Part shown: piece by piece, positions 26,166 to 57,042 of the stretch
Layout: the number at the start of each line of letters is the position of its first letter
How positions within the stretch are numbered: the first letter of the stretch is position 1
Source of the DNA: Nemertoderma westbladi
Taxonomy: Eukaryota > Animalia > Xenacoelomorpha
Reading direction: 5' to 3'
Assembly (NCBI GenBank): GCA_032718475.1
Contig: JAUCBJ010000412.1
Location: 1-64,000, forward strand
Length of the DNA stretch: 64,000 bases
The notes under the pieces: model-generated
Seen by the model: the letters and a program-made list of their open reading frames with translations, nothing else
What the model was told of the DNA's origin: nothing
Databases searched by the model: none
Made by a program: the position numbers and the translations under genes

Positions 26166-26678
26166 ATATCTGAGTATGATCTCGAAGTGGTTCACGTTAA
26201 ACGGGTTAAACGCAATTGTGCGTCAAACCGCATGTGGAGTGTTGCATCCTCCCTTAGGCATTGCAGGGTTGCCTGTATGCCCAGTTCGTGTGGTATGGAT
26301 TTGTAAATTTCATTTTAATTTCATTGACGTCCGAGTCTCTCTGAAGCTGTCTATTGACAGAGTAAAAATTCAATCCCAAATTTTTAACCTAAAGCAATAT
26401 AAGAAAGGAACCATGGCACTCTATTTTATCATGCGTCGTACTGTACCACTGAGATCCTTAAATTCTACCCGCAACTCCATAAGGTGTTGGTGAAGCGCAC
26501 CTCCCTCGATGCTCTTGGACGGTAAATAACATATCTCGGGACGAACGGCAAATAAAGCATATTTTATTTAACGCACAATAAATAGTTAATATTTTAACCT
26601 GCTGCAGTAATAGACTAACCAAATAATTAGCCACAAAAATATTTCTACATTAGTAGAACTGAAACTGTGTAATAATTT

Positions 26679-28889
26679 TGTTACGGTATATGGCGCTGTA
26701 TCCACATTATTAGTCGTTATACTGTATGCATTATTAGTCCGTTATGCAGTATGCAATATTAGTCCGTTATACTGTACGTAATATTAGTCCATTGTGCAGC
26801 ATGATATTTTAGATAAGGCATAATAACGCAGTGGTATTTAGATAGGGAAATCGAGACACCCATATATTTGAATCCATCCATTTTGTACAGTATGTAGCCC
26901 TACCTACGTAATTTTGTATTAGGATATATGTAGATAGTTCCAGGGTAGCGAGTTTATTCGGACCCTGGATTTTGTGCTTGCTGATATTAGCATCGATAGG
27001 GCTAGCATATAGGGACGCTGTCCTGGCCATTCAGCAGCCAGGGACGTGAACCATTACCATATATGGTAATAATTTGAGGTTTGGGCAAGCGATAGGGCTA
27101 CAATCCGGCCTCCTTATTGGACTAACTGCTTCCAGGTTGGTCTAATGCTAGCACGGACTGGAGAGCCAATAGGAGAGCGATTGAGTCACCCTATTGCATC
27201 ACCCCATCCGGATCACCTATAAATTGGCGGTGTGCCGGTAGAGCCTCACATGACACCTCACATGATCTGCTATCACCTTTGTACTTGTTGAGCTGTCTCT
27301 ATTCAATTTTGACGGATATTTTAGCGTATTTTCTGCAATTTGCTAATTTTGATTAATTTCTTGGAATGATTTGCTAGTGCGATTACTCTCGATTGTGTTT
27401 CTCAATTAATTCCTTCGATTACTGCTAATTACAACTGAACTATGATTTCTACTTTTGATTAATGGTTCTATGTGATTCCTTTCTGCGCAATAATCCTAAG
27501 GGATTTCTGAGACTGTCAGACTTTGTGATTTGCATGCGCCGCTACGGTAGCTATTAGCATAATGGAGGGCTAAGGTGCCAGTGGGCGGTGGGCACATCGG
27601 GGGGTTGAGCGACTAGGAGAGAGCGGAGGATTCAAAGCGGGCAACGCTGGCTAGGGTCACCGTTGCGGGCGGGTATCTTGCACTGTAACACGCAGACCAT
27701 TCGCCGATACAGTAACTAGGGGGCTGATGATCCAGGTTTTGTCTCTATTTAGTATTAGGGGGGCAGGAATCGGGTTAGTTAGGAATCCTAGATGTATCCG
27801 GGAGAGGCCTGCGCGTACTACAACGTTGAGTGTAGAGTACGAGTAGTGAATCGCATAATTGTGGGCTATACAGTAGTTAACTGCATAATTGCGAACTGTG
27901 ATTTCTGACGCTGATTGGTGTGTTATTGAAGTGTGCCTATGATTATGAATGTTTAGGTAGGCGCCCTTTTCTTTTGATTGATTTCTATTTCTTAGTTACA
28001 ATAATTAGTTACTGATTAGGTCAAAGTAATACGGCAATTTAGGCTATTACTAGCGAAACCTGTTGCGTAATAAATTAGAATTACGTATTCTGGAACTCTT
28101 AGTAATTAGTACGCTGTTAAATATTTGTGACTGTAATTGATTAGTAAAAATTAAGAATTAGTACGCAGCATAGCGGAGAGTAGCTAAGGTAATAATTAGA
28201 GTACTGTAAACTATTCACGCTGAGCGGTTATTTGCACTAGCGGGCAATCAGCTAGATCGCACTATTCGGTACGCACGATACGCTAGTAATTTGCTGGCCT
28301 AAAGCCAGCCGCAGGCAAGTTTAGACCCAGAGTGGTACTATCCACGTAAAAACAATTACTGTATCATTTTGATTATTTTAAATATTCTCGCATTCACACA
28401 TTACGTTAGGGAACCTCCAGTATTCGCGATTAGAAAGACGTAGACAATAGCGTGTTTTAATAGTGATAGAATTAGGCGTAAGAATACTCTGAGTGCAAGG
28501 CCTCTCGCACTCGTCTTAAGTAAGCTTAGGGAGCCGACTCGGGTTTATTGTTTTGGTTATTCCCGCGTGGCTCATAGATTCGAACAGTTAGCTCTCTATC
28601 GAGCGATCGGTAGAGAAAGGAACAAGCGATTTTGCAGGAGTTGTGTAAAATTAGTAAAATATATTAGCGGACGGCAGATTAGCGCCATCCAACGGTAAGT
28701 AGCGGTTTTGTATTTAGCCACCTTTACAATTTAGTAATATCACGCTCCTGATCCCCTTTACTTAACAGTAGAGCATTCTTTGTGTCTTATTGGTTAGGCG
28801 AGAGCTCATTAGGTTGACAGAAGGATATTAACGGGTATTGGTCTGTTCAACAGTTCTGCTGTTAGTATAGAGGTCGCGGTTGTTTATCA
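26679..28889 (+). repeat. 5' LTR
   Basis: TGTTACGG...GTTTATCA, repeated at offset 16,783. Contains short TATTAGTCCGTTAT.C.GTA tandem units near its start. Confidence 0.97.
27160..27225 (+). promoter_or_regulatory. Candidate Pol II promoter in the LTR
   Basis: CCAAT at 27166-27170, TGAGTCA (AP-1 consensus) at 27182-27188, TATAAA at 27218-27223. Same motifs occur in the 3' LTR. Confidence 0.5.
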
Positions 28890-30085
28890 GTAATACGCGT
28901 ATTTTATTGGCTGTAGGCTGTAGCGTACAGTAAATAGTGTATTCTTAGGCTGTTAGTTGTATCACAGTATTGAGTAATAAATTAGAGCACGTGATCGTCT
29001 GCTGTAGGCTATAGGCTAGCGTACGGTAGAACATTGAGTATATTCTTTTAGGCTGTTAGTTTAGATTACTGTATTCACTGGCTGCGTACAATAGTACAGT
29101 AGTACATTAGGCTGATTGCTGTTACTGCGTATGGTAGAAGAGACATTTGTTTTGCCGTACCACACACAGTATCATTAGGCTGTTAGGTTGGTGTACTGTT
29201 TTACTTACTGTACTGCATACAGTGAATGTACGGTAGTGCGTTTTGCTAATTGCGAATACAGCAGTTCCTTAGGCCTTAGGGCAAATTGTAATTAGTAAGT
29301 TTTTTGAAAATTATTAGCTAGGTTTGCGAGAATTCAGTTTCGGTCAAAATTATTTTGTAAAATTCTAGAGTTTTGTACCGGTATGTTAGGTAACCGCTTA
29401 GTTATTTTATACCATCTGGAGATACATGGCAAGACGGAACTTCTGAGTTTGGGGTTCGTGTGGGTCTGCGGGTTCGGTTTGCAATCAGCGAAGGGCCTGA
29501 ATCTTTGGACGCGGACGTGGAATCTCACAGCAAACAAGGTTAGTTGTTCTGTTGGCACCATAGTGTTTGTGGAAGCAGTAAAAAATTATCGGTTGTTTAA
29601 CTGCGAAGCTGAACTCAATTTATTAGTTAGGATATTTAGGTTTAGCCGGCCATGGTTTTGAATCGCTCAAGTTAGAGAGAGAGTTAGAGAGAGTCGCAAC
29701 CCGAAGATGTAGCCACGCGCTAGTGGATACATATAATATTTGAAACTAAAATTACGTTAATTAGAGCTATATATATATAAAATTAGAAATATTCGGGCGG
29801 CAAGTATATTTTGAATATTTTGTATTAGATTCAAAGTTATTTTGTGCTATACCGGTATTTAATGCTATATAATAGCTATATAATAATATTTTTGTTTAAA
29901 TATTGTGCTAGTATTTGCTATAACTATATACCCCATTAAATTCACAATATTGCATTGCGAATTTATTTTGACATTTTGGACCAACTGATTATTTGACAAA
30001 TAATTTGACCGTGTTTCGGTTAAATTATAATTATATCTCGAACCTTTGCGAGATATTTTGCCGGAAGGCAAACATTATTTAGACT

Positions 30086-33000
30086 ATGAGTGTCTCAGAC
30101 AAAGAGGCACTAGAGGACAGCTATGAGACGGCGGCTGGACCGCCGACTGACGATAGCGTAAACATTACTGTTGATGACAATGCCGACTATGACGACGCAG
30201 CGAGCGACGCTGACGTAAGTGAACAGGAGGACGAGACAGTGACTAGTGAGGAAGAACAACAACCTCAAGTAATAGTATTAGGATCCCCTACCGCTACTGA
30301 TAGGAAGGACTGTACGGCAGCCCGGACAGAGGTGAGTGATAGGGAGGGTAGTGTAGCAGAAGCGAGAGCCCGGAGCCCGGTTTCCAGACCTGTGGGTATG
30401 GTAAGTGCCGTGGTCCCAACGGCTGTAAGGAGTACCCGTAGTTCCCGAAATAATCCTTCAAGTCCACCGAGTGTGAGTCAGGTAAGCGAGAGAGAACTAG
30501 ACATTGCGATAAAGAAGAAACTTCGCGCGCATGCCGGACATATAACTCGGACGGCGGACAAGGTAAGGAAGATGTTAGCTGACTCAGCGAACATCGGGAG
30601 GGTAGAGTTAGTAGAGATTAGAAGAGGATATAACTCAGCGTTATTCAAGCAGACGGAGGAGCTTGCAGTCCTAGCGAAGAAGGCAGTAGAGTCTCAGTCG
30701 AGCGACGTGGCGACGAGGATTTATGATAGGGTTTTGGCAGCCCTGTTGGAGCATCGCGAGTTATCGGAGCGATTCCGACGAGTTAGGACGGAGAACTGGC
30801 TGCTATGGGCATCACAAACGCAGGCGACTCAGGTGAGTGACGCAGAGTTGAGAGACTTAGTGGAGCGAGAAGAGATCCAAGATAAAGAGGAGCGCCGGTA
30901 TCAAAGGGAAGTTACTAGCTGGCTGATGCAGAATGGAGTGGTGGTACCAGGCCAGGTGCTACCGACGACGGAGAACATTCAACAGAGGACGTTGACTCCA
31001 CCCGACGACGCATCCAGAGACAGTGGCGATTCCCAGGTTAGTCACGCGCGAGGGAAAGTTATATGTGCTAGATCTCTTGTTTCTCACAACTCGGCGGAGG
31101 AGAGAAGACGCCGACTGGACGAACAGCAGGCGGAAGTTTTGCGTGCATCGGAAGCACGGAAGGAAGCCGAGCAGGAACGGGAGCGAACACGTAAGTTAGA
31201 CGCGAAGTTGCGCGAATTGGAAGAGAAAGGTAAGCGTGAGCGAGCGGAACGCGAGCAGAAGGAACGTGAACTTCAACTTGAACGCGAACGCAAGGAACGC
31301 GAACTCGAACTTGAACGCGAGCAGAAAGAATGCGAACTCCAGCTCGAACGCGAACAGAAGAAACGCGAACTCGAACTTGAACGCGAACGCAAGGAACGCG
31401 AACTCGAGATCGAGAAAGAGCGACAAGCGTTGTATGAAGAAAGGGCGCGTGTGGAAGAAGAGGGCGCAGCGAGACGAGCGAGGGAAGAAGAAGAACGTAA
31501 ACTGGCGCAGTTGGAAAGTGCGAGATTAAGTTTAGACAGCGAAGAACGGACTAGGAAGGCGAATGAAATCGCCGAGAAGGGGATGCGAATGATCGAAGAA
31601 TGTGGGGCGAGTGTAGGGACTGAGTTGCGAGAACTGTTCGCACTGCAGAAGGCCGAACAGGAAGCGAGAACTCCGACTATACGCGAGTCGACGCCGACCA
31701 GAATTCCTATACCCGGTCCAGCTATTACGAGTACACGGATCGCTAAACCGTTCTCTACATATCGCACGCCAGTTGGTATTAGTGCTTCACCTATCGCGCA
31801 GAATCTACGTCATCGGAACACCGCACCACTATACACCGAACGCGACAACGGAGAGTTTAGAGAAACTCCGACGGGACGAGTACTTGGCGAACCGAACCCG
31901 CGGGTTTGGAATACGCGGACGGAGCGCCGACCCAGTTCAACGGAGAACTTCCGGGTTAAACCGGAAGAGGGATCATATGAGAGACAGCGGATTACTCAGA
32001 TAGAGCCGACTATACAACAGAACCCTAGCCAGGAATTTATTACGAGAGATGAGTTAAGTGCTAGTTTAGCGCAAGCTATATCGCCGCACATCCAACCTAT
32101 AACGGACATGCTTAGCAACCTACGGTTAAAGGAAGCAGCCCAGGTAAGAAGTAATTCAAATCCCAGCAGGCCTGAATTAGATAAAGTCCAGCCTAGTCAA
32201 CGAGTACGTATATCGGAGGAGACTATACCATATAGACCTCAGGTAAGGACGCCTGTCCCGAATATCCATAATCCCAATTTCGAAAATTCGGCGGAAAGAT
32301 TTATTGAGGAGGCTTGGGTCAGGGCCTCGGCGCGCAAACCATCGCGAGCGCTAAGGACTGACACCGAGTCAAGCGATGAAGAGGAAGACATGAGACGTCA
32401 GAAGTCCCGAAACTATAAGGAAAGAAGGACCGACGCGGAGCAGGTAAGTTGGAACCACCGGGAAAGGAACAGACTTAACAACCCTGCGGAACTAAACCAT
32501 TTGTTAACCCGGAACGACGCAACCCTTAGGGACATAGGTAAGTTTGCTGCTAGGCAAGGACTGCCGACGCAACAACCCCAGAAGTTTATGGGCAACCATA
32601 AGCATTGGAGGACTTTCAAAACCTATGTCGACGAGCAGCTAACCAACAGCACCTTTACTCCCAACGAGAAGTTCAACTATTTGCTTCAGATGCTCCATCG
32701 AGAACCTAGAGCCATTGCTGATAACTTCGTCGGCAATGAAAGGGCATTCGAGTTAGCGATGAAGACGCTTAGCGACATCTACGGGAATAAAACGAAGATG
32801 GCGCAGTCGATAGTAGAAGACTTGGGTAAGGGCGGAAGGATTACAACTCCGTTAGAGCTGTTGAACTTAGCGAACGCTATTTCGAACGCATTGGACATCT
32901 TGAGGACGGTGAATCTACCTCATCATGGTGATCACGCCGAAGTTTTAAAGAGCGTAATAAGACGTTTAAACATGCGTTGTCGACAGAAATGGCGCAAATT

Positions 33001-36000
33001 AGAGAATAAGTTGGAGGGCCAAGGTAAGGTATTGACACTTCAGCATATTCATGACATGATAGCCACAGACGCAGTAGCAGAGATGAAATCAAACTTCTCA
33101 GAGGAGAACATGAGGGAGTCTAAACCTGTTACCGGTAAGTCTATGGTAAGTTTTGACGATGACAGGACCACTGTGACATTTAACTCAGTAGACAGATATA
33201 ATTCGAGTACCCCAGCCTTTAGATCAGACTCGCGAGTATGGTCAGGTGAGCGGTTAGATAGACCTAGGTTAAAGCAACAGGAGTTGCCGGATGGATTTGT
33301 AGGTTGCCAATACTGTTTACTAAAGGAGGTAAGATCTGACGATCATAAGTTAGATAGTTGCAGACGGTTCAAAGAATTAAATTCGGAACAGAGAAGAGTT
33401 CAAGTGCGGACGTTGGACACCTGTTGGGCATGTCTTGCGCCAGGCCATGTACGGCGGCAGTGCCCGAACAGCAAGGACGGATGCATGGAATGCGGCAGAC
33501 TACATCACAAGTTGCTACATGCGGATTTCCATACCCCAACGGACCGTTACTTACAGCGAAATCCTCACAGGAAGGGGAGCAAAGAACCCGTATCGATAAG
33601 AAGGAATACGTACACTGGCATCCAGGACGATGGTTACCAACCAGGTTCGTCGGACGAGGATGGCGAGTCGAGCGCGAGAGAGGTGACCTGCCAAGGTTTC
33701 ACCGCGGATAGTTCATCGACCAGCGCGCGGACGTATTTATCATCGGCCACGTCGGAAATATTTAGCGTGATTCCGGTGAAACTCACTGGAGATAAGGGAT
33801 CAAAGCGGATATATGTGATGTTGGACACTGCGTCCACATTATCTTATATCGACGAGGAAGTGGCGAGAGCTGTTTCTAGCTTCCAGGATGCCGAGGAGAT
33901 CCAAATAGAGTTGAAGTCTATGCATGGAGTAGGAGACCTCAAGGGACACAGAATTTCGGTAGAACTAGATTCCCTACTTCCGAGAGACCAACATACTCGA
34001 CAAGAACGGAAAGCTTTGCCATTGGACAGATTTAAGTGTCTAGCTATGAAGGGATTCGGCAGGCAGTTAGGTAAGGTGCCGCCGATGAGTCCCATAGCAC
34101 AGGAGTATTTTGACAAGCTCAGGATACCCAGACACCAGGTAGGTTATAGGAATGTTTCTATGTTGATTGGTGCAGAACAGCTGATCGCACACCAAATATG
34201 GGAAACGAGACCAGCTGAGCCGCATGTCAATGGACCACATGCCCATAGGACCATACTAGGTTGGTATACACGAGTACCCATGTCTTATGAGTTTACAGGT
34301 GGCGACAAGCCAATAAACAGATACGACGAATTACAGCCTATAATTCAACCACCGTTAGTAGAACCACCAGACATAGACGAGTTTAGGAGAACCTGTATTG
34401 ACCACTATAGTGACTTTAGCGAGTCGGACGAGGAGTTGATTCCCGATAATGTTAGGTTGTCGGAACCACTTCACAATAACCGGACAGATAGTGAACCCGA
34501 GGACTACTGTTATCAGACCCGTGGGTCTGGTTCAGCAGCCCACGCTACCTATTTGACTAACGTTTTGACTTATACAGACATAGTGGAGGGTCAAGTGGCT
34601 AAATATCGAGACCTAGACATTTTCCAATACAGTGAGGAGGAATTACAGAAGGAATTGATACGCCAGGACCTCGAGACAGGAGCCAGAACCGTCGAATGGC
34701 TGGATAGGGACGCAATGGAACCCGGTGGATATGACCTAGCCATGTCTACTGATGAGAAACGGTCGCTGGAGATGATGGAAGATACCATACGTCTGCTACC
34801 GACTGGACATTTTGAAGTTGGAATGTTGTGGCGTCGACAACCACCTAAGTTGGAGAACAACTACAACTTAGCCTTGAAAAGATTAAACGGAGTAAGGGCT
34901 CGGTTGTTGAAGAATCCGGATATTAGGGAGAAGTATTGCGCCCAGATCAACAACTATTTCGCCAAGGGATTTGCTGGGAAGGTAGAGGACCCTGACTTAG
35001 TGACAGACCAGACTTATTACCTTCCACACCACTATGTGACTCACCCTGACAAGCCAGACAAAGTCCGAGTAGTCAACGACTGCGCAGCAGTCTATAGAGG
35101 TATGTCCCTGAATTCAGAGTTGATGGATGGTCCCAACCTGAACAACTATTTGATTGGAATACTGTTGTGTTTTAGACAGCGGCGATTCGCATTTACTTGT
35201 GACATCGAGGCGATGTTCCACCAGGTAAGAGCCTGTAAGGCAGACCAGGATAGCCTTCGCTTTCTCTGGTACGAGAATGAAGACTTATCCGGCCCAGTGG
35301 TTACATACCAGATGTACGTAAGGATATTTGGCGCCCGCGATAGTCCAAACGGCACGCTGTTTGTTCTAAAGAAAACGGCAACAGCCCAGATTGGTAAGTA
35401 CCCAGTAGAGGTTATCGAGTCCATCTTGAGAAACTTCTATATGGACGACGGATTGGTGTCTAAGGAGACAGCGGAACAAGCCATAGAAGTGGCTAACGGC
35501 CTACAGAAGTGCTTGGCTACAGGGGGTTTTCCTCTGACCAAGTTCACTACCAATTCGGAGGCCCTATTAGAATCGTTCCCGGTTAAAGATCGCGGGAGCG
35601 GAGACATTGAATTGGGGGTGGAACCCATTCCCATGGCGCGAGTACTGGGACTCGCTTGGAATCCGAACACAGACAAGTTCCAGGTAAGAGTTAGATTTGA
35701 GCCCAGTAGCCCAGACAAGATTTTGACAAAGAGAATTTGCTTATCGATGTTAAGTAGACTATTTGACCCGATGAACTTTATCAGTCCGGTAATATTACAG
35801 GCACGAGCGTGCATGAGGAAAATTTGGTTGTCCGACCTGGAGTGGGACGAACCAATATCTCCTATACATGCAAAGCAGTGGAGGGAGTGGGAAGCCGAGT
35901 TGCATCTATTGAAAAATATAGATGTACCCCGATCCTACTTTCCGAATCAGCTGGTATTTCCAACTGATCTCGAACTCCACCTATTTAGTGACGCAAGTGA

Positions 36001-38497
36001 CACCGGCTTTGGTATGATAGCCTACCTTCTCCGAGAGGTAAGTCAGGACAAGTTTGAGACGGCCTTTGTAACTTCTAGATCAAAGACAATGCCGGTCAAA
36101 TACATGACTGTCCCTCGTGCAGAGTTACAGGCGGCAGTAGTTTCAGTCGAGGTGAGTAAGCAGATAATAGAGGAGTTAGACACGACATTGACTTTATTCT
36201 ATTGGACGGACGCATCCTTAGTGTTAGTATACATTGCAGCCAACAATATTGCACTAAAGACATTTGTGGCCAACAGACGCGCTCAGATCGTCGACTTTTC
36301 GACGAAGGAACAATGGAGACATTGTCCGGGAGTGTTGAACCCGGCCGACATAACTTCGAGAGGTGCAATGCCGGCGGAATTCTGTCAGGAAGAGTCGCAG
36401 GAGTTTTGGTTGCATGGACCTGATTTTCTAACAAGGACACAGGAACATTGGCCAGAGCGACTAAAGATTGTGACCAATCCGATTCCTGAAGATGCAGAAG
36501 TCAAGGTGGAGAAAGTCTCTAAGTCGAAGTCTAAAGCCAAACTCAAGTCATTGGAGCGGCCTGAAGAGTCATTGGAGCGGCCTGAAGAGTCATTGGAGCG
36601 GCCTGAAGAGTCATTGGAGCGGCCTGAAGAGTCATTGGAGCGGCCTGAAGAGTCATTGGAGCGGCCTGAAGAGTCATTGGAGCGGCCCGGAGACCTGTCA
36701 GACCAACAGACTTACGTGACTACTAGATCCGGAAGGGTAAGTTACGACGTAAAACCACCCTTACAGACTAAACCGGAGTCACAATTGGTAAGTGACGGAC
36801 AGAAAATGACCGACACAATGGAGTCTTTGGTTTCCAAACCTGCGGGTTTGGATTCGAAACTTCCATTAATTAGCGGACAACCGTCGCTGGCATTAGAGCC
36901 ATGTAGTATTTATGACAAATTACTAAATTCGTCTGCCTCTTGGCTGACAATTTGTAAAAGAACTGCGTGGTTAAGCCGATACATTTTGTACCTTTGTATA
37001 AAACATTCGAAACATTTGAGAGAACCATTGAGCACCAATAGTGAGCGAATTCGGAAATTGAAACAACCTCTGACAGAGGATGAGATTGATCAAGCGGAAT
37101 TAAAGCATTTGAAACATTATCAAATGTGTGCCTTCCCGAAAGAATTCCATCTATTATCGGCTCAACGACCAGTTCTCTATAAACCCCTGAGAAAATGGAG
37201 TCCATTAATCCATAAGGGTTTGATTTGTCATAGATCGAGAATCCAGACTGTCGACATAAACTCACAGTTTCGGTTCCCAGTGATAATCCCTAGTTACCCG
37301 ATAGAATTGCAAAGAGCGATTCTATGGGATATACACAAGAGGTTGCATCACGCGGGAAAGTTACACTGTCTGTCGGCAGCGAGACAGCGATTCATTCTAT
37401 TGCAGCCAAGCAGGGCAGTCGGCACTATGTATGACGCCTGTCTGGTTTGCAAGAGGGTGAACGCCAGAGTATTGGAACAGGAGATGGCTGAACTCCCGGA
37501 AGCGAGAGTGCAGGCATATGACCCACCCTTTACGAACACAGGGGTGGATTGTTTTGGTCCGATTGAAGCAAAGAGTGGACGGCTGACCCACAAGCGATGG
37601 GGTCTGCTACTGACATGCATGGCTAGTAGAGCCATACACATTGAGCGTGTGGCAGACATGTCGACCAAATCTCTGCTCCTGGCCTTGAAGAGATTTATGG
37701 CCAGGAGAGGACTAGTAAAGGCGTTCTACTCCGATAAGGGTACAAACTTTGTCGGAGGGAATAGCGAGTTGAACGCGGCTCATAAAGCGGCACAGAATAA
37801 GGAAATTTCTGCAGCACTTTTGCCGCAAAGAGTAGAGTGGAGATTTAATACTCCAGAAAGTCCTTGGAGAGGAGGAAATTGGGAGCGTTTAGTTCGCTCT
37901 GTGAAGCAGGCCATTGCTAAGACGTTGCCTGTAAACAAACAACTTACCGACGACGAACTGGTCACAGCTTTCATTGAAATCGAGCATACCCTAAACTCGA
38001 GGCCGATAGCTATGTTGCCAGACGGTGTTGCATTAACGCCGAATCATTTGCTAATGCAGAGTCCAGCATTTCTTGTGCCGGCATCAGAACCCGTTAGTGC
38101 CGACCTATATAGTCGTAAGAGCTGGAAAATGACTCAATTAGTCGCGTACACATTCTGGGAATATTGGCGGGAATACTATCTTCCCACCATATCCACCAGA
38201 ACAAAGTGGTACAAAACGGTTCGGAGTCTCCAAAGGGGAGACTACGTACTGATAACCGAGCCGATTGTCAAGAGAAAGTATTGGGAGACAGGAGTGATCT
38301 TGCATATACACCCAGACGTGCAAAACATAGTGCGCACAGTCACTGTGAAAATTAGGTGCAAGTGTCCGCACCCAAAAAAGTGTAAAACTAATGGTTTGCA
38401 CACCTTGGACCGACCGGTCCAAGATATTGTGTTATTAGAGGAGACACGTATCGAGACGGGAGATTATAATTTGTCTCCTGCCTCTAAACTGAATTAG
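30086..38497 (+). CDS. BEL/Pao Gag-Pol polyprotein, 2803 aa
   Basis: Gag Cys/His boxes CQYC..H..C, CWACLAPGHVRRQC, CMECGRLHHKLLH. Protease MLDTAS. RT YLPHH..KVRVVND, DIEAMFHQV, FYMDD. RNase H LFSDAS, FYWTD, NPADITSRG. Integrase HKRLHHAG..CLVC, DCFGP, SDKGTNF, WERLV. Confidence 0.97.
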   Translation: MSVSDKEALEDSYETAAGPPTDDSVNITVDDNADYDDAASDADVSEQEDETVTSEEEQQPQVIVLGSPTATDRKDCTAARTEVSDREGSVAEARARSPVSRPVGMVSAVVPTAVRSTRSSRNNPSSPPSVSQVSERELDIAIKKKLRAHAGHITRTADKVRKMLADSANIGRVELVEIRRGYNSALFKQTEELAVLAKKAVESQSSDVATRIYDRVLAALLEHRELSERFRRVRTENWLLWASQTQATQVSDAELRDLVEREEIQDKEERRYQREVTSWLMQNGVVVPGQVLPTTENIQQRTLTPPDDASRDSGDSQVSHARGKVICARSLVSHNSAEERRRRLDEQQAEVLRASEARKEAEQERERTRKLDAKLRELEEKGKRERAEREQKERELQLERERKERELELEREQKECELQLEREQKKRELELERERKERELEIEKERQALYEERARVEEEGAARRAREEEERKLAQLESARLSLDSEERTRKANEIAEKGMRMIEECGASVGTELRELFALQKAEQEARTPTIRESTPTRIPIPGPAITSTRIAKPFSTYRTPVGISASPIAQNLRHRNTAPLYTERDNGEFRETPTGRVLGEPNPRVWNTRTERRPSSTENFRVKPEEGSYERQRITQIEPTIQQNPSQEFITRDELSASLAQAISPHIQPITDMLSNLRLKEAAQVRSNSNPSRPELDKVQPSQRVRISEETIPYRPQVRTPVPNIHNPNFENSAERFIEEAWVRASARKPSRALRTDTESSDEEEDMRRQKSRNYKERRTDAEQVSWNHRERNRLNNPAELNHLLTRNDATLRDIGKFAARQGLPTQQPQKFMGNHKHWRTFKTYVDEQLTNSTFTPNEKFNYLLQMLHREPRAIADNFVGNERAFELAMKTLSDIYGNKTKMAQSIVEDLGKGGRITTPLELLNLANAISNALDILRTVNLPHHGDHAEVLKSVIRRLNMRCRQKWRKLENKLEGQGKVLTLQHIHDMIATDAVAEMKSNFSEENMRESKPVTGKSMVSFDDDRTTVTFNSVDRYNSSTPAFRSDSRVWSGERLDRPRLKQQELPDGFVGCQYCLLKEVRSDDHKLDSCRRFKELNSEQRRVQVRTLDTCWACLAPGHVRRQCPNSKDGCMECGRLHHKLLHADFHTPTDRYLQRNPHRKGSKEPVSIRRNTYTGIQDDGYQPGSSDEDGESSAREVTCQGFTADSSSTSARTYLSSATSEIFSVIPVKLTGDKGSKRIYVMLDTASTLSYIDEEVARAVSSFQDAEEIQIELKSMHGVGDLKGHRISVELDSLLPRDQHTRQERKALPLDRFKCLAMKGFGRQLGKVPPMSPIAQEYFDKLRIPRHQVGYRNVSMLIGAEQLIAHQIWETRPAEPHVNGPHAHRTILGWYTRVPMSYEFTGGDKPINRYDELQPIIQPPLVEPPDIDEFRRTCIDHYSDFSESDEELIPDNVRLSEPLHNNRTDSEPEDYCYQTRGSGSAAHATYLTNVLTYTDIVEGQVAKYRDLDIFQYSEEELQKELIRQDLETGARTVEWLDRDAMEPGGYDLAMSTDEKRSLEMMEDTIRLLPTGHFEVGMLWRRQPPKLENNYNLALKRLNGVRARLLKNPDIREKYCAQINNYFAKGFAGKVEDPDLVTDQTYYLPHHYVTHPDKPDKVRVVNDCAAVYRGMSLNSELMDGPNLNNYLIGILLCFRQRRFAFTCDIEAMFHQVRACKADQDSLRFLWYENEDLSGPVVTYQMYVRIFGARDSPNGTLFVLKKTATAQIGKYPVEVIESILRNFYMDDGLVSKETAEQAIEVANGLQKCLATGGFPLTKFTTNSEALLESFPVKDRGSGDIELGVEPIPMARVLGLAWNPNTDKFQVRVRFEPSSPDKILTKRICLSMLSRLFDPMNFISPVILQARACMRKIWLSDLEWDEPISPIHAKQWREWEAELHLLKNIDVPRSYFPNQLVFPTDLELHLFSDASDTGFGMIAYLLREVSQDKFETAFVTSRSKTMPVKYMTVPRAELQAAVVSVEVSKQIIEELDTTLTLFYWTDASLVLVYIAANNIALKTFVANRRAQIVDFSTKEQWRHCPGVLNPADITSRGAMPAEFCQEESQEFWLHGPDFLTRTQEHWPERLKIVTNPIPEDAEVKVEKVSKSKSKAKLKSLERPEESLERPEESLERPEESLERPEESLERPEESLERPEESLERPGDLSDQQTYVTTRSGRVSYDVKPPLQTKPESQLVSDGQKMTDTMESLVSKPAGLDSKLPLISGQPSLALEPCSIYDKLLNSSASWLTICKRTAWLSRYILYLCIKHSKHLREPLSTNSERIRKLKQPLTEDEIDQAELKHLKHYQMCAFPKEFHLLSAQRPVLYKPLRKWSPLIHKGLICHRSRIQTVDINSQFRFPVIIPSYPIELQRAILWDIHKRLHHAGKLHCLSAARQRFILLQPSRAVGTMYDACLVCKRVNARVLEQEMAELPEARVQAYDPPFTNTGVDCFGPIEAKSGRLTHKRWGLLLTCMASRAIHIERVADMSTKSLLLALKRFMARRGLVKAFYSDKGTNFVGGNSELNAAHKAAQNKEISAALLPQRVEWRFNTPESPWRGGNWERLVRSVKQAIAKTLPVNKQLTDDELVTAFIEIEHTLNSRPIAMLPDGVALTPNHLLMQSPAFLVPASEPVSADLYSRKSWKMTQLVAYTFWEYWREYYLPTISTRTKWYKTVRSLQRGDYVLITEPIVKRKYWETGVILHIHPDVQNIVRTVTVKIRCKCPHPKKCKTNGLHTLDRPVQDIVLLEETRIETGDYNLSPASKLN
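31236..31420 (+). repeat. Coding tandem repeat (about 33 nt, ERELELERERK-type) encoding a predicted Gag coiled coil
   Basis: Repeated GAACGCGAAC..AAGGAACGCGAACTCGAACTT units. Confidence 0.85.
36548..36688 (+). repeat. Perfect 21-bp coding tandem repeat, (SLERPEE)x6 + SLERP, between RNase H and integrase
   Basis: TCATTGGAGCGGCCTGAAGAG repeated without mismatch. Confidence 0.97.
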
Positions 38498-39259
38498 TGT
38501 TGGACGCAACTCACTTCGTATGCATTCCTCGTATGCAAATACAAGGAAATGCATAGGAGCGGGGTTGTGGTGATTTGCGTTGAGTTTTGTCTAGTGGGTA
38601 TCAAAACAAAATTTTATTTTCAAAAATTTTGAAAAATTTAAAATTTTAAAAAATTAGAAGTGAACCCAAGACAATTCCAGACGCTGTGTATAGACGCGTT
38701 TTAGAATTCGTCTATAGATAAACAGTAATTTGAAAAGTCGTGAAGCCTGGAAAATAGCATTTAGAAACCATGGTGACGGCTATATTACGTAGGAGTGTAA
38801 ATTGAGTTTAGCAACTTCCACAGATTGGTGCCAACAGTGCAACTAAGGTGCTAAAGGTTAGTAGCACCAGAGGCGTACATGGACCCCACTCAGTAGTTTG
38901 CAGGATGTGTGATGTTCGATTATCAAACCTGTGGGTTTGGTATAGTCGAGTATTGTGGCTATAGTCCTTTCTAACTACTGTAGTTTAGTACGAGTAATGG
39001 GAGTAGTTTGGGCATCAAAAAGTGAGTTGGTCACGGCCAGTTTATCTCCAAAGTTTTTGCGCTATGCATGGGAATAGGTTAGAGGATAGTTAGTTAGGAA
39101 GAGACGGGATCTAGAGAGTCGAACCTGAACTGCTGGAAGGCGGGGGGGGGGGTTCGGGAGGTCTGTCCTTCGGCGACATCTAACTGATTTACCCATAGTG
39201 TAATTGGTTACGTAACGGCACTTATTGGGATATATATATATGTATATACGCGAGGCATA

Positions 39260-42200
39260 ATGGAGAGGGATATTAGAGCGCAACCGCGCAGAGGATTTAC
39301 TGCCAGAGAGGAGGCGGAGCTACCATTCGCGCGACCAGGATGTAAAGACTCTAACGTTTACTACCATGGGCGGTCCGTGATGGAGCTAAACGGGAAATAC
39401 AAGCCGAGTTATGATAAAGAATTACGGAGGGAAAGAATGAGAGCGTTGGGGGACCGGATGGAAGTTTTGCGGAGAGAGTATCGCACGCGGTATCCCTACG
39501 ACTTCGCTTTGGACGTGTGTGACATCAGCGCAGATCCGGACGAGGAAATCGCATGACTATACCATATGAATATGTATTTACGACATGAGGAGCCTCTACC
39601 TGCAGTCTGAGACCAGTTCGACGGAATGCATCTATACCGGAGGACTCGAGGTGAGGATCAGGAGACGCCGAAAGTCTTCAGCGTATACAAGCTCTTCTAC
39701 AAGTGTGGTGAATGCATGAATAAACAAGATGTGGCGATTCCCGACCGATTAGACGAGCAACATCCGGAACCGATATTAACGCGATGTCCAGCTCACCAAT
39801 TCCTTAGATACAACGAGGGAGGTTACCCGATGAGCAACCCGATGATCAGTATCGACTTCAGCGGAAAGCGACCTCCGAGACCCATTACGCCGACCGTTAC
39901 GACATTGGATCCGTATACGGAGATTAAACCCTGTTCGACACCCAGTTTGATAGAGACGGCAGCGGCCATTTCGCTGTACCGAGCCTACAAGGATCTAGAG
40001 GCGCGGCGCGAAGCGGCGCGGGACTCGGGTACCAAACCCGCGGGTTTGGAGCTCTCGAGTCCCTGGACTGCGTTTACTTCACCTCACCGAGTGAGAAGCC
40101 TCACGCCTGAGCATCAGGACGACATAGACGCGTTGCGGCAGGAGGAGCGAGCGGCGAAGGCGAAAGAGTTATTTGAGAACAGGATAGCGGAGTATAATAA
40201 GACCGCGGATAGACATCAAGAGGAGACGAGGAGAGTGACCGGATTTGTTCCACAGGTCGCATCTCAACCCGGACCGGTGTATTATTCCGACGGCACCGAA
40301 CCTGCGATATTAGTAGATCATCCGGAGTTGCGAGAAGCGATACGATTCTTGCCGATGGTAAGAATGGCGGACCATTGGAACGTTGACTGTCTACGGGAAG
40401 TTTTATGCGCGAAGTTCTTGCGTGATGTCCCAATGCAGATCACAGATTACGACACGTTGGATAAGATTGGAGCTCCGGGGAAGGAGAGTAAGCTATTCGG
40501 ATGGTTGGATAAGTACATCAAGGTATGGGTCGCGGTGGCTACATTCCCAGATGACGAGGAGGTAGACCAGACGTGGCTGAGGAGGAAGGGTTCTTATACC
40601 CGATATGATGACCACAAGGCTATCGAGCGCATGTGGACCCCATCAGACGAGATTCAGCGTCAGTGGAGGAAAACGGAGGAATCACTGCAGGATTGGAGGG
40701 TGATGTTCTACGACAATGAAGGAGGGTCCCATCAGGAATGTTTGACCAGCAAGTGTATTCAAATTCGTGCGGCCGATGGTGTGACTCATGTGTTTATGCG
40801 TGTGAGGGCGGATCGAGAGAGACCGGAGCCCATCATAACGACACAATATCGGAAGGGGAAGGATCCTAGGGAACAGATTTTGGAGGTATGCAGGCGAGGA
40901 GGTATGCACGGAGCGGAGCGTATCGACGCCAGGATGCTACCCAAGAAAGTTAGAGAGGCTATTCTCAACCAAGATTACGTCAAGGTGGGATCGGGAGTCC
41001 AGAGTGATTTGGAGAGCGACTTCAACGCCATGACTGATCTGGAAGATAGATTGCCGAGACCGTTTGTCGACACCAAGCTATTGTTGCTATGGGCACAGGA
41101 TATTGGAATTTATAGGGAGTATCCCAACTCTGCCAAGACTGGTATTGGCTTTATAGTACACTTGTTGTATAATTGGGACTTTAAGTTAAAGACGCAGAAG
41201 AAGTACGAGGAGGCGTATGGTGAATACAACACGCCACCGGGAGCGGAGTTCAAATCCCACTTCAAGCGGCAAGCGTTAGTGTATTGGAACATTTGCGCGC
41301 CACCCCGTGCGTCACTACAATATTATTTGGTGCTTGAGTCGAACACGGTGACTTGTTTATGAGCGGATATCGTTGCGCGAGTTTTGAAGCGTCATCCATT
41401 GGTATTCGGAGGAGATCAATACGTTCGCTCGAAAGGGGGAATCCAATCCGACGTGATGAAGCGTTTCTTAACCCCGTTCTTCAAGCAATCGTTAGAGAAT
41501 ACGTCGATGGTTAGGAGAGGATTAGCGATATTCGAAGGAGTATATCGACAGAACATCGGAGATTTGGGAGACCGACCGTCGATGGAATATCCGACGCCAG
41601 AAGCTTTGGAGAAGTGGTTCGGGCATCAAACCCGCGGGTTTGGTACTCCCTTCCACTCGGAGGCTGATAGACCTGTTAAGGAGGGCTGGCCGGAGACGTT
41701 AGTAGAGGTGTTCGGAGTAGATCTTCCGGTGGAGAAGACATATCCGAAACGAACGCAGGAGGAAATATTGGAGATAGAGGACAAGGGCGAGGATGTTTAC
41801 TTTGTTCCGGATCGACAACCGTTGACCGGAGAGGACGACATCGTATTAGACATTGGGAAGGAAGGAAGTGCGAAACCGATTGGAGACCTCATATACGAGA
41901 GGGCCTGGTTTCCACAAGCGCGTAGGTGCAAATTGTGCGGCAGCACAAGGCACAATCTAAAGTCGTGCGACGCGGTAGTAGAGGCGGCGCATAAGGTCTG
42001 TCGTTGGTGTAATGAGACCGACCATTCGTTTCACACGTGCACCGTCTTCATTTCTCAATGTGGATATTGTGGGGTAAAGGGACATCGTAGCGCGAGATGT
42101 CAGCTGCGAGATGATTCCTTTCAAAACCATAGCGCTAACCTACTTCGGGAGATGTTAGATAAGTGGGAGGGTGTGGCCGATTACCATATTCAAGTGCAGA

Positions 42201-42904
42201 TGCGTTGGTTACCATTTAAAGCGGGATATGGGTTTTGGGCGGTAGACCCATCGCATGTTGCGTACGAGCCATATCTACAATCGCTACCACAATATCAGGA
42301 GCTCATCCTAACTGCTCAAGACCTTCCACAGAACACTGGAGTTATCGTAGTCCGAGAATACTTCAGACAATTGAACATGGACAATAAGTACACATGGAAC
42401 TTCGTTGCTATTTGCGATCGCATCACGAAGGGTGTATTTACGGAGACTAGAAAAGTGGTACGCGCGCGAGGTGATTGGAGGATGGCGGCTATACAATACC
42501 GCAACGAATTCTTGTTGACTCATGTGCCAGTGGGTTCATTGACCGCTGAGAGGATACAGGAGCAAAGGATCGCAGCGACCACAGCGACGACCGCTGGAGC
42601 TCAAGGCTTGCGGAAAGAACCAGGAGGAGGGGTCCAAGACAAGCGTCAAGTCAAGGACGACCACTACCACTCTATTATAGAAGCACAGAGGTTGCAGCGC
42701 AAGGCGCAGGGGGCGTCGGAGAAGGCGCGAGTGCAACTGCATAAGGAAGAGTTGGCGGAAGCGACCACGGGAGCGCGACAATTGGGACGAGGCCGAGGAA
42801 GAAGCACAAGCCGGGAGTCTGTCGGGGCTCAGGGAACGTCGTCGCCGGTTCCGGGAGTGACGCCTCACGGACGCCGTCAACGGAGTCGACTGGAGGTAGA
42901 TTAG
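39260..42904 (+). CDS. Accessory ORF of the BEL element: DEDDy/WRN-like 3'-5' exonuclease plus three CCHC zinc knuckles; one frame with three internal TGA codons (disrupted or recoded)
   Basis: ORF-track pieces 39260-39556, 39626-41362 and 41384-42904 share one frame, separated only by TGA at 39554, 39608 and 41360. ExoI VMFYDNE, ExoII REAILNQDYVKVGSGVQSD, FVDTKLL, ExoIII-like W..LQYYLVLE. Knuckles CKLCGSTRHNLKSC, CRWCNETDHSFHTC, CGYCGVKGHRSARC. Confidence 0.72.
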
Positions 42905-43461
42905 TGTATCTGGGAAGAGGGCGAAAGAGAGGAGCGAGCCCAAAGAACCCAGGAGCGGGTCGATAATACATTATAGCACAGGGCGACAGACTCTAGATAT
43001 ATACATCATCGTCGCTCTGATGTATATTGTAGCATTTGGAAATCTTCGACTAGACTCATATACACTAGTTGAGTTATTTTGGAATTTATATTATGAGAGA
43101 GGCGAAGGAAGTGATTGGGGAGACAAACCTGCGGGTTTGGCTTACTCCTTTCACTTGCCCTAGCCAATTTTATATTTGATTTTGTATGTAGTAATCATTA
43201 TGTAGTAAGAATGAACGAGAAACAATATTTTGTAAATTTAATTTGTATGTAATAATCGTTAAACAATGAGAGAGATAATATTTTTGTAAATTTAATTTGT
43301 ATGTAATTCATTATGCAATATCTATAGCAATATTTGTAAATAGTAGGATTTGTAGTATCAAGTGTTTAGATTGGTTGGAAGAAATTTATTTTGTTTTGTA
43401 TACATCACCTTATACTCTTCTACAATTGGAGGGAAACATTGTATGATTTCCCTTGGAGCGG

Positions 43462-45672
43462 TGTTACGGTATATGGCGCTGTATCCACATTATTAGTCGT
43501 TATACTGTATGCATTATTAGTCCGTTATGCAGTATGCAATATTAGTCCGTTATACTGTACGTAATATTAGTCCATTGTGCAGCATGATATTTTAGATAAG
43601 GCATAATAACGCAGTGGTATTTAGATAGGGAAATCGAAACACCCATATATTTGAATCCATCCATTTTGTATAGTATGTAGCCCTACCTACGTAATTTTGT
43701 ATTAGGATATATGTAGATAGTTCCAGGGTAGCGAGTTTATTCGGACCCTGGATTTTGTGCTTGCTGATATTAGCATCGATAGGGCTAGCATATAGGGACG
43801 CTGTCCTGGCCATTCAGCAGCCAGGGACGTGAACCATTACCATATATGGTAATAATTTGAGGTTTGGGCAAGCGATAGGGCTACAATCCGGCCTCCTTAT
43901 TGGACTAACTGCTTCCAGGTTGGTCTAATGCTAGCACGGACTGGAGAGCCAATAGGAGAGCGATTGAGTCACCCTATTGCATCACCCCATCCGGATCACC
44001 TATAAATTGGCGGTGTGCCGGTAGAGCCTCACATGACACCTCACATGATCTGCTATCACCTTTGTACTTGTTGAGCTGTCTCTATTCAATTTTGACGGAT
44101 ATTTTAGCGTATTTTCTGCAATTTGCTAATTTTGATTAATTTCTTGGAATGATTTGCTAGTGCGATTACTCTCGATTGTGTTTCTCAATTAATTCCTTCG
44201 ATTACTGCTAATTACAACTGAACTATGATTTCTACTTTTGATTAATGGTTCTATGTGATTCCTTTCTGCGCAATAATCCTAAGGGATTTCTGAGACTGTC
44301 AGACTTTGTGATTTGCATGCGCCGCTACGGTAGCTATTAGCATAATGGAGGGCTAAGGTGCCAGTGGGCGGTGGGCACATCGGGGGGTTGAGCGACTAGG
44401 AGAGAGCGGAGGATTCAAAGCGGGCAACGCTGGCTAGGGTCACCGTTGCGGGCGGGTATCTTGCACTGTAACACGCAGACCATTCGCCGATACAGTAACT
44501 AGGGGGCTGATGATCCAGGTTTTGTCTCTATTTAGTATTAGGGGGGCAGGAATCGGGTTAGTTAGGAATCCTAGATGTATCCGGGAGAGGCCTGCGCGTA
44601 CTACAACGTTGAGTGTAGAGTACGAGTAGTGAATCGCATAATTGTGGGCTATACAGTAGTTAACTGCATAATTGCGAACTGTGATTTCTGACGCTGATTG
44701 GTGTGTTATTGAAGTGTGCCTATGATTATGAATGTTTAGGTAGGCGCCCTTTTCTTTTGATTGATTTCTATTTCTTAGTTACAATAATTAGTTACTGATT
44801 AGGTCAAAGTAATACGGCAATTTAGGCTATTACTAGCGAAACCTGTTGCGTAATAAATTAGAATTACGTATTCTGGAACTCTTAGTAATTAGTACGCTGT
44901 TAAATATTTGTGACTGTAATTGATTAGTAAAAATTAAGAATTAGTACGCAGCATAGCGGAGAGTAGCTAAGGTAATAATTAGAGTACTGTAAACTATTCA
45001 CGCTGAGCGGTTATTTGCACTAGCGGGCAATCAGCTAGATCGCACTATTCGGTACGCACGATACGCTAGTAATTTGCTGGCCTAAAGCCAGCCGCAGGCA
45101 AGTTTAGACCCAGAGTGGTACTATCCACGTAAAAACAATTACTGTATCATTTTGATTATTTTAAATATTCTCGCATTCACACATTACGTTAGGGAACCTC
45201 CAGTATTCGCGATTAGAAAGACGTAGACAATAGCGTGTTTTAATAGTGATAGAATTAGGCGTAAGAATACTCTGAGTGCAAGGCCTCTCGCACTCGTCTT
45301 AAGTAAGCTTAGGGAGCCGACTCGGGTTTATTGTTTTGGTTATTCCCGCGTGGCTCATAGATTCGAACAGTTAGCTCTCTATCGAGCGATCGGTAGAGAA
45401 AGGAACAAGCGATTTTGCAGGAGTTGTGTAAAATTAGTAAAATATATTAGCGGACGGCAGATTAGCGCCATCCAACGGTAAGTAGCGGTTTTGTATTTAG
45501 CCACCTTTACAATTTAGTAATATCACGCTCCTGATCCCCTTTACTTAACAGTAGAGCATTCTTTGTGTCTTATTGGTTAGGCGAGAGCTCATTAGGTTGA
45601 CAGAAGGATATTAACGGGTATTGGTCTGTTCAACAGTTCTGCTGTTAGTATAGAGGTCGCGGTTGTTTATCA
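43462..45672 (+). repeat. 3' LTR
   Basis: Copy of 26679-28889. Differences noticed at 26855/43638 (G/A) and 26888/43671 (C/T). Confidence 0.97.
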
Positions 45673-46244
45673 AATTTAGTAAAAAATACGATACGAAAAA
45701 TAGAAAGGCAATAAAGAATATAACCATTTATGTAACGCTTCATAAAGTACCACTTTATAGGAAAACAGTTGTTACTTGATTATTAATACGTAATTTAATT
45801 CAAAAATTGAAATGTTTATTTTTGACGGAAAAATGTTCATGTTGATCTCATCACTTCGGCACATCGCCCGAAACACAGGAGATGACAACTACAACTGGAA
45901 TTCCAAACCAACCAACAGTCTACTGGGTCTCAGATTGCTTCTACCCATCGTTTGAACTTCTTCTATAGGCTAAACCATAAGTAAACACGGACGCCGACTT
46001 CCGCTCATAGGAATCGTTGACTCGGTGATTCGTGGACACTTTTGGAGACGCTATCCGAACTTTTACCAGATGGACGGAGTTCCGGTTTACTGTGTTGTCA
46101 ACATCCATGACGCTTGCCAGAAATTGATCACTCTTCTCCGCCTGGAGGTTGGACTTTGGAAAATTAATCTGAAAAATAATATAGATAAATACACTAAAGA
46201 TACAATAAATGAAGCATAATAAAGACGTAATAAAGAATACAGTC

Positions 46245-48730
46245 AACCTTACCCAAACTCCACTCAAACGTCATTCTAACATACCCAAACGCCACTCAAA
46301 CGGCATTCTAACATAACCAAACGCCACCCAAACGTCATTCTAACATAACAAAACTCTATCCAAACGACAGTCTAACATACCCAAACGGCAGTCTATATTG
46401 CACAAGCGCCACCCAAACCTGCAAACGGCAGTCTAACTTACCAAAACGCCACTCAAACAGCATTCTAAGATACACAAGCGCCACCCAAAGGACAGTCTAC
46501 CTTACCCAAATGCCACCCAAACGGCAGTGCTACCTTACCTAAACGCCACACAAACGTCAGTCCACCTTACCCAAACGCCACCCAAACGGCAGTCTACCTT
46601 ACTCAAACGCCACACAAATGGCATTCTAACATACCCAAACGCCACCCAAACGGCATTCTAACATAGACAAACGCCACTCAAACGGCATTATAACATACCC
46701 AACGCCACCCAAACGGCATTCTAACATACCCAACGTCAAACAAACGGCATTCTAACATACCCAAACGCCACGCAAACGGCACTCTAACATACCCAAACGC
46801 CACCCAAACGGCATTCTACCTTACCCAAACGGCATTCAAACATACCCAAACGCCACCCGAACGGCATTCTAACATACCCAAACGGCATTCTAACATAACC
46901 AAACGTCACTCAAACGGCATTACAACATAACCAAACGCCACACGAACGGCAGTCCACCTTACCCAAACGCCACCCAAACGGCAGTCTACCTTACTTAAAC
47001 ATAACTCAAGCGGCATTCTAACATACCCAAACGCCACCCAAACGGCATTCTAACATACACAACGCCACACAAACGGCAATCTAACATACCCAAACGCCAC
47101 CCAAACGGCATTCTAACATACCCAAACGGCATTCTAACACAACCAAACGCCACTCAAATGGCATTCCAACATAACCAAACGCCACACTAACGGCAGTCCA
47201 CCTTACCCAAACTCCACCCAAACGGCAGTCTACCTTACTTAAACATCACTTAAACGGCATTCTAACATACCCAAACGCCACCCAAACGGCAGTCTACCTT
47301 ACCCAAACTCCACCCAAACGGCATTCTAGAATACCCAAACGCCACCCAAACGGCATTCTATCATACACAAACGCCACCCAAACGGCATTCCACCTTACCC
47401 AAACACCACCCAAACGGCAGTCTACCTTACCCAAACGGCATTCTAACATACCCAAACGCCACCCAAACGGCATTCTAGCATACCCAAACTCCACCCAAAC
47501 GGCATTCTAACATACCCAAATGCCACCCAAACGGCATTCTAACATACACAAACGCCACCCAAACGGCATTCAACCTTACCCAAACACCACCCAAACGGCA
47601 GTCTACCTTACCCAAACGGCATTCTAACATACCAAAAATCACCCAAACGGCATTCTAACATACCCAAACCCCACTCAAACGGCATTCTAACATAGGGGCC
47701 GTCCAAGTATGACGTCAGCACTTTAGGGGGGGGAGGGGGGTTGGGAAAATCTGATGACGTGCTGATGAGGGGAGGGGAGGGGGTCAGCCAAAATCTGACG
47801 TCAGCATGTTCATTTATAGGTGCTAGAAGAGATATAGCAGAAGAGTAAATAGCTTGCCTATTTTAATTGTTCGAAGCCCCCGAAGGCCCGTAGCACGACC
47901 TTCTGTTTCAGTTACCAGTCACCATGTTTCAGTGATTAGGACGCGTTCTACTGGGGTACTGCGGTACTGGGGTTCGCCTGAAAATGAAACATTAATCGCT
48001 AAGCTAATGATTGTTAGAGACTGCAGTACCGGTACCTCTACCGGTTCATATAGGCCTATTATTAGCTTATGTTTGTTTATTATCATTCATAAACTGCTGT
48101 CGCATCAGGTACAAGTACAGTATGTAAACGATAGGCTATCCTACTACAACTCTATACCTTCCTATATACAGTAGATAAGCTATGTAACTACAGCCAGCCC
48201 CCGTGCCCGCCCCCTCCAATGCAATATAATACCTCCTTTATCCTGCTGAAAAGTTTTATTATTCTTTTGCAATATTTGATAATTTATTCTTTCTTGGCAT
48301 ACACTTAACTAATTTAATTCGTGATTCGACAAGTGATTATAAATAATCTTCATAATATAATAGTTTATTACAAATTTTTTTTTAATCTGATTTAGGGGGG
48401 GGGGGGGGGGGGGGGGTCAACGCCTATCTGATGACATCTGATTTAGGGGAGGGAGGGGGTCAACATTTTGGGGAAAAGTGCAGACGTCATACTTGGACGG
48501 CCCCATACCCAAACGCCACCCAAACGACATTCTACTGTACCTGACCCAAACGCCACTCAAACGGCATTCTAACATAGGCCTACCCAAACGCCAAATCAAA
48601 CGGCATTCTAACATACTGACATACCCCTACGCCACCCTAACGGCATTCTAACATAGGCCTACCCAAACAGCCAAACGCCACCCAAACGGCATTCTAACAT
48701 AGGCCCACCCAAACGGCAGTCTAACATACA
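46245..48730. repeat. 32-bp tandem array (ACCCAAACGCCACCCAAACGGCATTCTAACAT), split by a MITE
   Basis: Unit built from two 11-bp ACCCAAACG.C subunits plus ATTCTAACAT or AGTCTACCTT. Inverted copies of the subunit at 49310-49445. Confidence 0.93.
47695..48504. mobile_element. 810-bp MITE, PIF/Harbinger-like
   Basis: 30-bp TIRs GGGGCCGTCCAAGTATGACGTC(A/T)GCACTTT. 3-bp TSD ATA (47692-47694 and 48505-48507). The host array resumes in phase. Confidence 0.9.
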
Positions 48731-56960: not shown

Positions 56961-57042
56961 TGATGTACACAATGTCTGTGTGTCAATCTATCCTAGTTTA
57001 CAGTTTCACAGAGTTTTAAATGGATTATTATTATTATTTTAG

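Follow-up and report, generated by a model that had tools for sequence, protein, structure and literature searches.

A probable exonuclease and zinc-knuckle gene in the env position of a BEL/Pao retrotransposon family

What does a BEL/Pao retrotransposon carry between its gag-pol gene and its 3' LTR if the gene in that position is not an envelope? The third genes known from BEL/Pao elements are envelopes, whereas a 64,000-nucleotide stretch of the Nemertoderma westbladi genome (the window) contains an element with a non-env third gene, ORF3. An earlier note, made from the sequence alone, had read this gene as a DEDDy-type 3'-5' exonuclease followed by three zinc knuckles. We here examine whether ORF3 belongs to the element family, how well the exonuclease reading holds, and what the encoded protein might do.

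The element and its surroundings

Self-comparison of the window delimited an element of 18,994 bp (Table 1). Its gag-pol matches the Pfam families Peptidase_A17 (E = 1e-37), DUF5641 and DUF1759, which assigns the element to BEL/Pao; DUF1759, Peptidase_A17, integrase and DUF5641 all lie within the single gag-pol ORF, and the paired LTRs have the TG..CA termini and 5-bp target duplication of BEL/Pao-type elements. The single gag-pol with Peptidase_A17, DUF1759 and DUF5641, the LTR termini and the target duplication are shared with the BEL/Pao elements (Belpaoviridae) described in the accessible text of de la Chaux and Wagner 2011 (PMC3118150), but the 19 kb found here exceed the 15-kb upper bound given there. 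Exonucleases are mentioned nowhere in that accessible text. The element is very young, with only 2 differences between its 2,211-bp LTRs. A canonical TGG primer-binding site was not found directly 3' of the 5' LTR (28890-28920), and therefore priming may be unusual.

Table 1. Features of the BEL/Pao element and of ORF3 (window positions)
Feature	Coordinates	Strand	Basis or remark
5' target-site duplication AATTT	26674..26678	+	identical 5 bases directly 3' of 3' LTR
5' LTR, 2,211 bp, TG...CA	26679..28889	+	self-comparison
TATAAA 27218; AATAAA 28069	within 5' LTR	+	
Splice-donor-like site in leader, candidate donor for ORF3 message	29537..29544	+	pattern scan
Open BEL/Pao gag-pol, 2,804 codons	30083..38497	+	ORF and domain matches
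Branch-point and YAG acceptor-like site (candidate)	39180..39198	+	pattern scan; 62 nt upstream of ORF3 ATG
ORF3, 1,214 codons if read through; ATG in strong context	39260..42904	+	
In-frame TGA no. 1, then CTA	39554..39559	+	probably common to most copies
In-frame TGA no. 2	39608..39610	+	this copy's lineage only
Probable DEDDy-type 3'-5' exonuclease domain	40700..41390	+	profile match, ordered-block test
Domain landmarks: Exo I D485/E487, strands 499-513, Exo II D583, DT 604, candidate Exo III Y689/E693			
In-frame TGA no. 3, directly behind candidate Exo III	41360..41362	+	this copy's lineage only
Three CX2CX4HX4C zinc knuckles	41927..42100	+	motif scan; starts 41927, 41999, 42059
Low-complexity basic tail with RGRGR	42500..42904	+	
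3' LTR, 2,211 bp, TG...CA	43462..45672	+	differs from 5' LTR at 2 sites
3' target-site duplication AATTT	45673..45677	+	

The leader downstream of the 5' LTR spans about 1.2 kb. Within gag-pol, a 21-nt unit is repeated in frame in 6.8 perfect copies between RNase H and integrase (36546-36687), and the splice-donor core GGTAAG is the top over-represented hexamer (30086-38494; rank 1 of 3,205), with 20 occurrences where synonymous-codon shuffles predict 4.9 (z = 7.4). The wider pattern GGTRAG occurs 24 times on the sense strand of gag-pol and 2 times on the opposite strand, and 2 times in ORF3. The GGTAAG excess possibly reflects decoy sites that bind U1 and protect the long RNA in its unspliced form. 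No relative of gag-pol was found among viral contigs.

The window also contains satellites with units of 25 bp (1-10167), 36 bp (self-complementary; 13051-14044) and 32 bp (46250-47694), a reverse-transcriptase ORF (11237-13009), and a second, unrelated BEL/Pao fragment carrying integrase and DUF5641 (51629-53122). Host-type genes include a single-exon sugar transporter (16681-18156), a single-exon animal-type fumarase (21497-22966; best PDB matches human) and an EHD gene in two exons (54186-57843). CpG observed/expected ratios of 0.8-1.2 in the five stretches measured give little sign of methylation decay.

A broken copy of a selected family gene

ORF3 lies between gag-pol and the 3' LTR, as the earlier note had claimed, but the single 1,214-codon frame described there is broken by TGA codons at 39554, 39608 and 41360, leaving open pieces of 98, 17, 583 and 513 codons. 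In this copy ORF3 is a pseudogene, which the note had overlooked. A reassigned TGA codon was ruled out: none of the 2,804 gag-pol codons is an internal TGA, and a pair of the ORF3 stops is restricted to the lineage of this copy. Also rejected were selenocysteine and structured read-through at TGA 39554, no stable RNA structure having been found 3' of this first TGA (downstream fold z = -0.42).

The window stretch, in whole or in part, was matched in 6 of 7 listed sequencing runs. We placed the contigs of four runs on positions 38400-43500 and followed the coverage of ORF3 by summed depth in 30 bins. Thousands of contigs, among them 6,593 from run X1 and 3,181 from run X3, covered all 30 bins; these contigs are short, none spans the element, and their depth gives no copy number. 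From the pol end across ORF3 to the LTR, the summed depths had a similar order of magnitude. Among the contigs are also diverged ORF3s, at 80-90% identity. The contigs of the DNA runs cover the whole gene in sister copies, and ORF3 clearly exists in many copies within this BEL/Pao family rather than as a one-off insertion.

Which of the stops are shared was read from a list of every difference with at least a 35% share on positions 39500-41420 (23 rows from runs X1, X2 and X3, representing two samples). A sense codon stands at the 39608 and 41360 positions in 97-100% of the listed depth, and at 39608 in all of it in each of the three runs; these two TGAs are restricted to this copy's lineage. 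At 39554 no alternative letter reached a 35% share in the three DNA runs, which leaves room for a minority of copies without this stop, and the first TGA is probably common to most copies.

For selection we used 52 listed ORF3 sites, 37 of them from 40 of 418 variants and the rest from the 39500-41420 list, with the two stop rows excluded; the lists are biased to common variants, so that the ratios are crude. Among the variants listed, 40 sites segregate, of which 34 are synonymous and 6 non-synonymous (22-30% synonymous expected) and 30 fall in third codon positions, giving a crude omega of about 0.05-0.08. All 12 listed segregating sites within 40301-41500 are synonymous. The synonymous excess indicates purifying selection; of the three findings that the earlier note had named as refuting its reading, absence from sister copies and neutral evolution are both contradicted by the data. 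Since sister contigs cover the gene and its listed variants show this 34:6 ratio, ORF3 is a family-wide cargo that is selectively maintained.

Of the listed sites, 12 are found in this copy only, and they differ from this pattern (6 synonymous and 6 non-synonymous, plus the 2 stops; Fisher p = 0.02). On 39500-41420, 11 of 1,921 positions are private, where about 1 is predicted from LTR divergence. On both grounds, ORF3 most likely decayed before this insertion, in an ancestral lineage that went on transposing; homogenised LTRs, or sequencing runs from other populations, could mimic such a pattern.

The gene appears to begin at the ATG at 39260. A naturally occurring variant, seen in 3 of 4 runs, lacks about 330 nt of the N-terminal part (39260-39735) but leaves the first 48 codons in frame with the rest of ORF3, and 3 of 4 variant sites in the first 98 codons are synonymous, which together suggests that this ATG and the first 98 codons are part of the gene. 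Genes in the env position, such as those of retroviruses and gypsy, are usually expressed from a spliced message. Two branch-point and YAG acceptor-like sites occur within 38500-39700, and ORF3 may be expressed from a message spliced at the one ending at 39198. The long form of the protein would then arise at a low level by read-through of the common UGA-CUA; alternatively, translation may start at 39566 or 39572. According to the accessible text of PMC4132726, UGA-CUA on its own gives 1.5% read-through in human cells, and alphaviruses employ this leaky context.

None of 19 distant BEL/Pao loci (RT identity 32-42%), about 6 of which reach at least 1.5 kb past the integrase and hence far enough to tell, contains a relative of ORF3. 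Judged from these loci, the gene is therefore lineage-specific and outside the BEL/Pao core machinery. Low-depth contigs about 98-99% identical to ORF3 (39774-41977) were also present in run X4, tentatively an RNA run and assigned to a different organism (B), and may represent a close relative, contamination or diet.

Zinc knuckles and the probable exonuclease domain

The three canonical CCHC knuckles of the earlier note are present where it had placed them, as is the basic tail with its RGRGR. Shuffling the 513-aa piece 20,000 times produced at least one CX2CX4HX4C in only 3 cases; the Pfam zf-CCHC profile gave E = 0.12 on ORF3, under the cut-off. A one-base length difference near 42852, found in about half or more of the sister depth, alters the last codons. 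The highest 19-residue hydropathy mean in ORF3 is 1.14, and thus the protein has no membrane helix, in line with the note's view that it is not an env; an env identity, for which we looked for a signal peptide with a transmembrane anchor, was rejected. The knuckle module makes RNA a likely substrate of the protein.

The middle region is harder to assign. A profile check for an exonuclease, which the earlier note had proposed, gave no match to PF01612 at E up to 10. Searches of Pfam, NCBIfam and PHROGs with ORF3 gave no match, apart from two chance matches in PHROGs (E = 0.27 and 0.52), and a PDB sequence search with 40601-41359 returned only rotavirus VP4 (E = 0.016), taken as chance. Homologs were found neither in two word-based searches (667-2,125 aa and 192-613 aa), nor in a HMMER search of 1.84 billion representative proteins, nor in metagenome loci; exact look-up of 9 window proteins found none, and tblastn against phages and plasmids gave nothing better than E = 0.08. 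Two AlphaFold models, computed from the single sequence without an alignment, had pLDDT values of 31 and 37; with these low-pLDDT models Foldseek returned nothing at E < 0.001, and VIA-align reached at best Z = 5.0, on helices only, results that at such pLDDT values speak neither for nor against the fold.

The residues named in the earlier note stand where it had put them: D485 (40712), E487 (40718), D583 (41006) and Y689/E693 (41324/41336). For a DEDDy-specific search we made profiles from bacterial members of PF01612, the main one from 160 sequences, and ran it with filters off. The best match of the main profile in the 1,214 residues was 561-608, which comprises Exo II and DT (E = 0.0027), and was equalled in 1 of 1,000 shuffles, a p of about 0.001 that applies to one family chosen after the motifs had been seen, is optimistic and would not stand against all families. 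The same profile did not match gag-pol. Sub-profiles for RNase D and WRN-like proteins scored ORF3 (2 and 6 of 1,000 shuffles), and those for NrnC and PolA left it unscored (314 and 52 of 1,000 shuffles). With hhalign, the probability against the DEDDy profile was 3.6% (E = 0.012).

In an ordered-block test (seven blocks, none placed by hand; a single run with fixed settings and 1,500 shuffles), the blocks recovered were Exo I (481), the strands (499), Exo II (564), DT (602) and W676. No shuffle of 1,500 did as well (z = 4.5 for seven blocks, 5.4 for the first four). A D-x-E after a hydrophobic strand and then the Exo II Asp are thus recovered in order, with the 0 of 1,500 shuffles again referring to one chosen family. 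The score was 22 for ORF3 and at most 8.2 for six control proteins, against 122 and 72 for E. coli RNase D, which sits close within the family used for training. The Exo I block contributes only 1.6 bits, and the Exo III block scored -5.1 and was placed away from the candidate Y689-x3-E693, which lies 13 residues past W676. Taken by themselves, the three catalytic blocks are not significant, since 108 of 1,500 shuffles did as well.

These results divide the earlier claim of motifs in the right order and spacing: the order, and the stretch from Exo I to DT, beat chance, but Exo III does not, and the spacing is long. D485 to D583 spans 98 residues and D583 to E693 spans 110, compared with 59 and 69 in a WRN-like alignment (A1) and 65 and 85 in TbRND, so that a DEDDy alignment of ORF3 needs two inserts of about 40 residues each. 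With the WRN exonuclease, EXD2 and Nibbler/Mut-7 (PF01612), ORF3 shares the motif order and the Exo II block (helix, K-x-G-x-G, Asp), which in alignments reads like that of WRN and EXD2. The DEDDy assignment of the earlier note accordingly has statistical backing for Exo I, the strands, Exo II and DT, but ORF3 differs from these proteins by its long inserts, its unmatched Exo III and its lack of a family-level score. In the candidate Exo III the last catalytic Asp would be replaced by Glu (E693); in TbRND, loss of the last acidic residue nearly abolishes cleavage (PMC7797062, accessible text).

Two precedents raise the prior for this assignment, DEDDy cargo in the env position and DEDDy domains joined to CCHC knuckles. 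The first, mentioned in the earlier note, is published: DEDDy ORF3s occur in the rotifer LTR elements Juno and Vesta and in Athena/Terminons (Rodriguez, Kenefick, Arkhipova 2017, PMC5408684; rotifer DEDDy cargo is also covered in PMC5718144, PMC6431247 and PMC6338049; all in their accessible text). Like ORF3 here, those of Juno and Vesta are non-env third ORFs between pol and the 3' LTR, with putative DEDDy motifs including a D-to-E change and with no membrane helix. Unlike them, the gene described here resides in a BEL/Pao element rather than in the rotifer clades, would have its Glu at the last position where the rotifer ORF3s read DEED, and encodes three CCHC knuckles in about 1,200 codons; neither 'CCHC' nor 'zinc knuckle' is mentioned in the accessible text of PMC5408684. 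Selection is strongly purifying here, whereas the rotifer env-like and GDSL ORF3s sequenced in that work varied neutrally.

The second precedent, missed in the earlier note, is cellular. Small guide RNAs are a target of TbRND, the RNase D of Trypanosoma brucei (PDB 7C42/7C45); its knuckles grip the guide RNA and increase RNA binding and cleavage (PMC7797062, accessible text). TbRND has a DEDD exonuclease domain and, C-terminal to it, four tandem CCHC knuckles; ORF3 shows the same order, with a probable exonuclease part and three evident knuckles. TbRND is a mitochondrial protein of about 375 residues with an intact DEDD and a 28-residue linker, whereas in ORF3 about 190 residues separate domain and knuckles and long N- and C-terminal parts are added; no PDB match to TbRND was found with 40601-41359 at E up to 10. 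Taken together, it is quite likely that the middle region of ORF3 adopts a DEDDy fold, and its identity as an exonuclease is probable.

What ORF3 may do for the element

We tentatively propose that ORF3 encodes a trans-acting, knuckle-assisted, divergent DEDDy 3'-5' exoribonuclease directed against host small silencing RNAs, a reading based on the TbRND-like architecture, the selection across the family, the absence from other BEL/Pao elements and the dispensability in cis. The three zinc knuckles would hold single-stranded RNA, and the exonuclease would over-trim or destroy the host small RNAs. The protein would act in trans, because the lineage of this copy, with ORF3 broken, still yielded a very recent insertion. 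A fuller version is doubtful as a whole: a TbRND-like, knuckle-guided DEDE exoribonuclease of a highly amplified BEL/Pao family, its dose set by splicing and by leaky UGA-CUA read-through, would destroy piRNA/siRNA guides in trans, with ORF3-null copies freeloading.

It is possible, if somewhat unlikely, that the exonuclease instead serves the element's own cycle by trimming 3' ends of element RNA, primer or cDNA in the particle, with the knuckles binding genomic RNA as a nucleocapsid does. The knuckles belong to the type found in retroviral nucleocapsids, priming may be unusual given the missing canonical TGG site, and the accessible text of PMC5408684 lists processing of the 3' ends of element RNA as an option and WRN-type relatives as working on DNA. 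Other BEL/Pao elements nevertheless replicate without ORF3, and this lineage moved after its ORF3 broke, although supply in trans could cover for that.

A real, selected knuckle protein whose middle domain has another fold, resembling an exonuclease by chance, is an unlikely explanation; it would fit the blank outcome of all unbiased searches, the long spacing and a significance that holds for a single family picked afterwards, but not the recovery of four to six blocks in the right order without hand placement, nor the two precedents for such cargo and such a fusion. More unlikely still is a domain with the DEDDy fold but little or no activity, used to bind RNA in the manner of EXD1 or Maelstrom (inactive DEDD derivatives according to the accessible text of PMC5408684), which would shield element RNA or sequester small RNAs. 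The weak Exo I and the poor, Glu-ended Exo III point that way, but acidic residues occupy all four candidate positions, and D485, E487 and D583 are untouched among the variants listed. That ORF3 is a decaying one-off capture without function for the family, as the three stops in this copy and the low-depth deletion forms that lose much of ORF3 might suggest, is very improbable and largely refuted by the thousands of contigs over all bins at a depth similar to the pol end, the strong synonymous excess and the privacy of two of the stops.

In the freely accessible papers covered, we found no exonuclease ORF in a BEL/Pao element and no exonuclease-CCHC fusion in a transposon. As an exonuclease gene, ORF3 would be a type of cargo hitherto reported only from other retrotransposon groups; both the DEDDy ORF3 and the TbRND fusion were already known. 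In animal LTR elements, enzyme cargo in the env position has come from rotifers, without evidence of selection or activity; ORF3 extends it to BEL/Pao and adds a knuckle module. Purifying selection acts on it throughout a family that is large, recently active and includes natural null copies, and the case so raises a testable question: do enzymes of animal retrotransposons act on host small-RNA defence, or on the element's own RNA? If the proposed small-RNA reading is true, ORF3 would be a transposon-encoded enzyme against small-RNA silencing.
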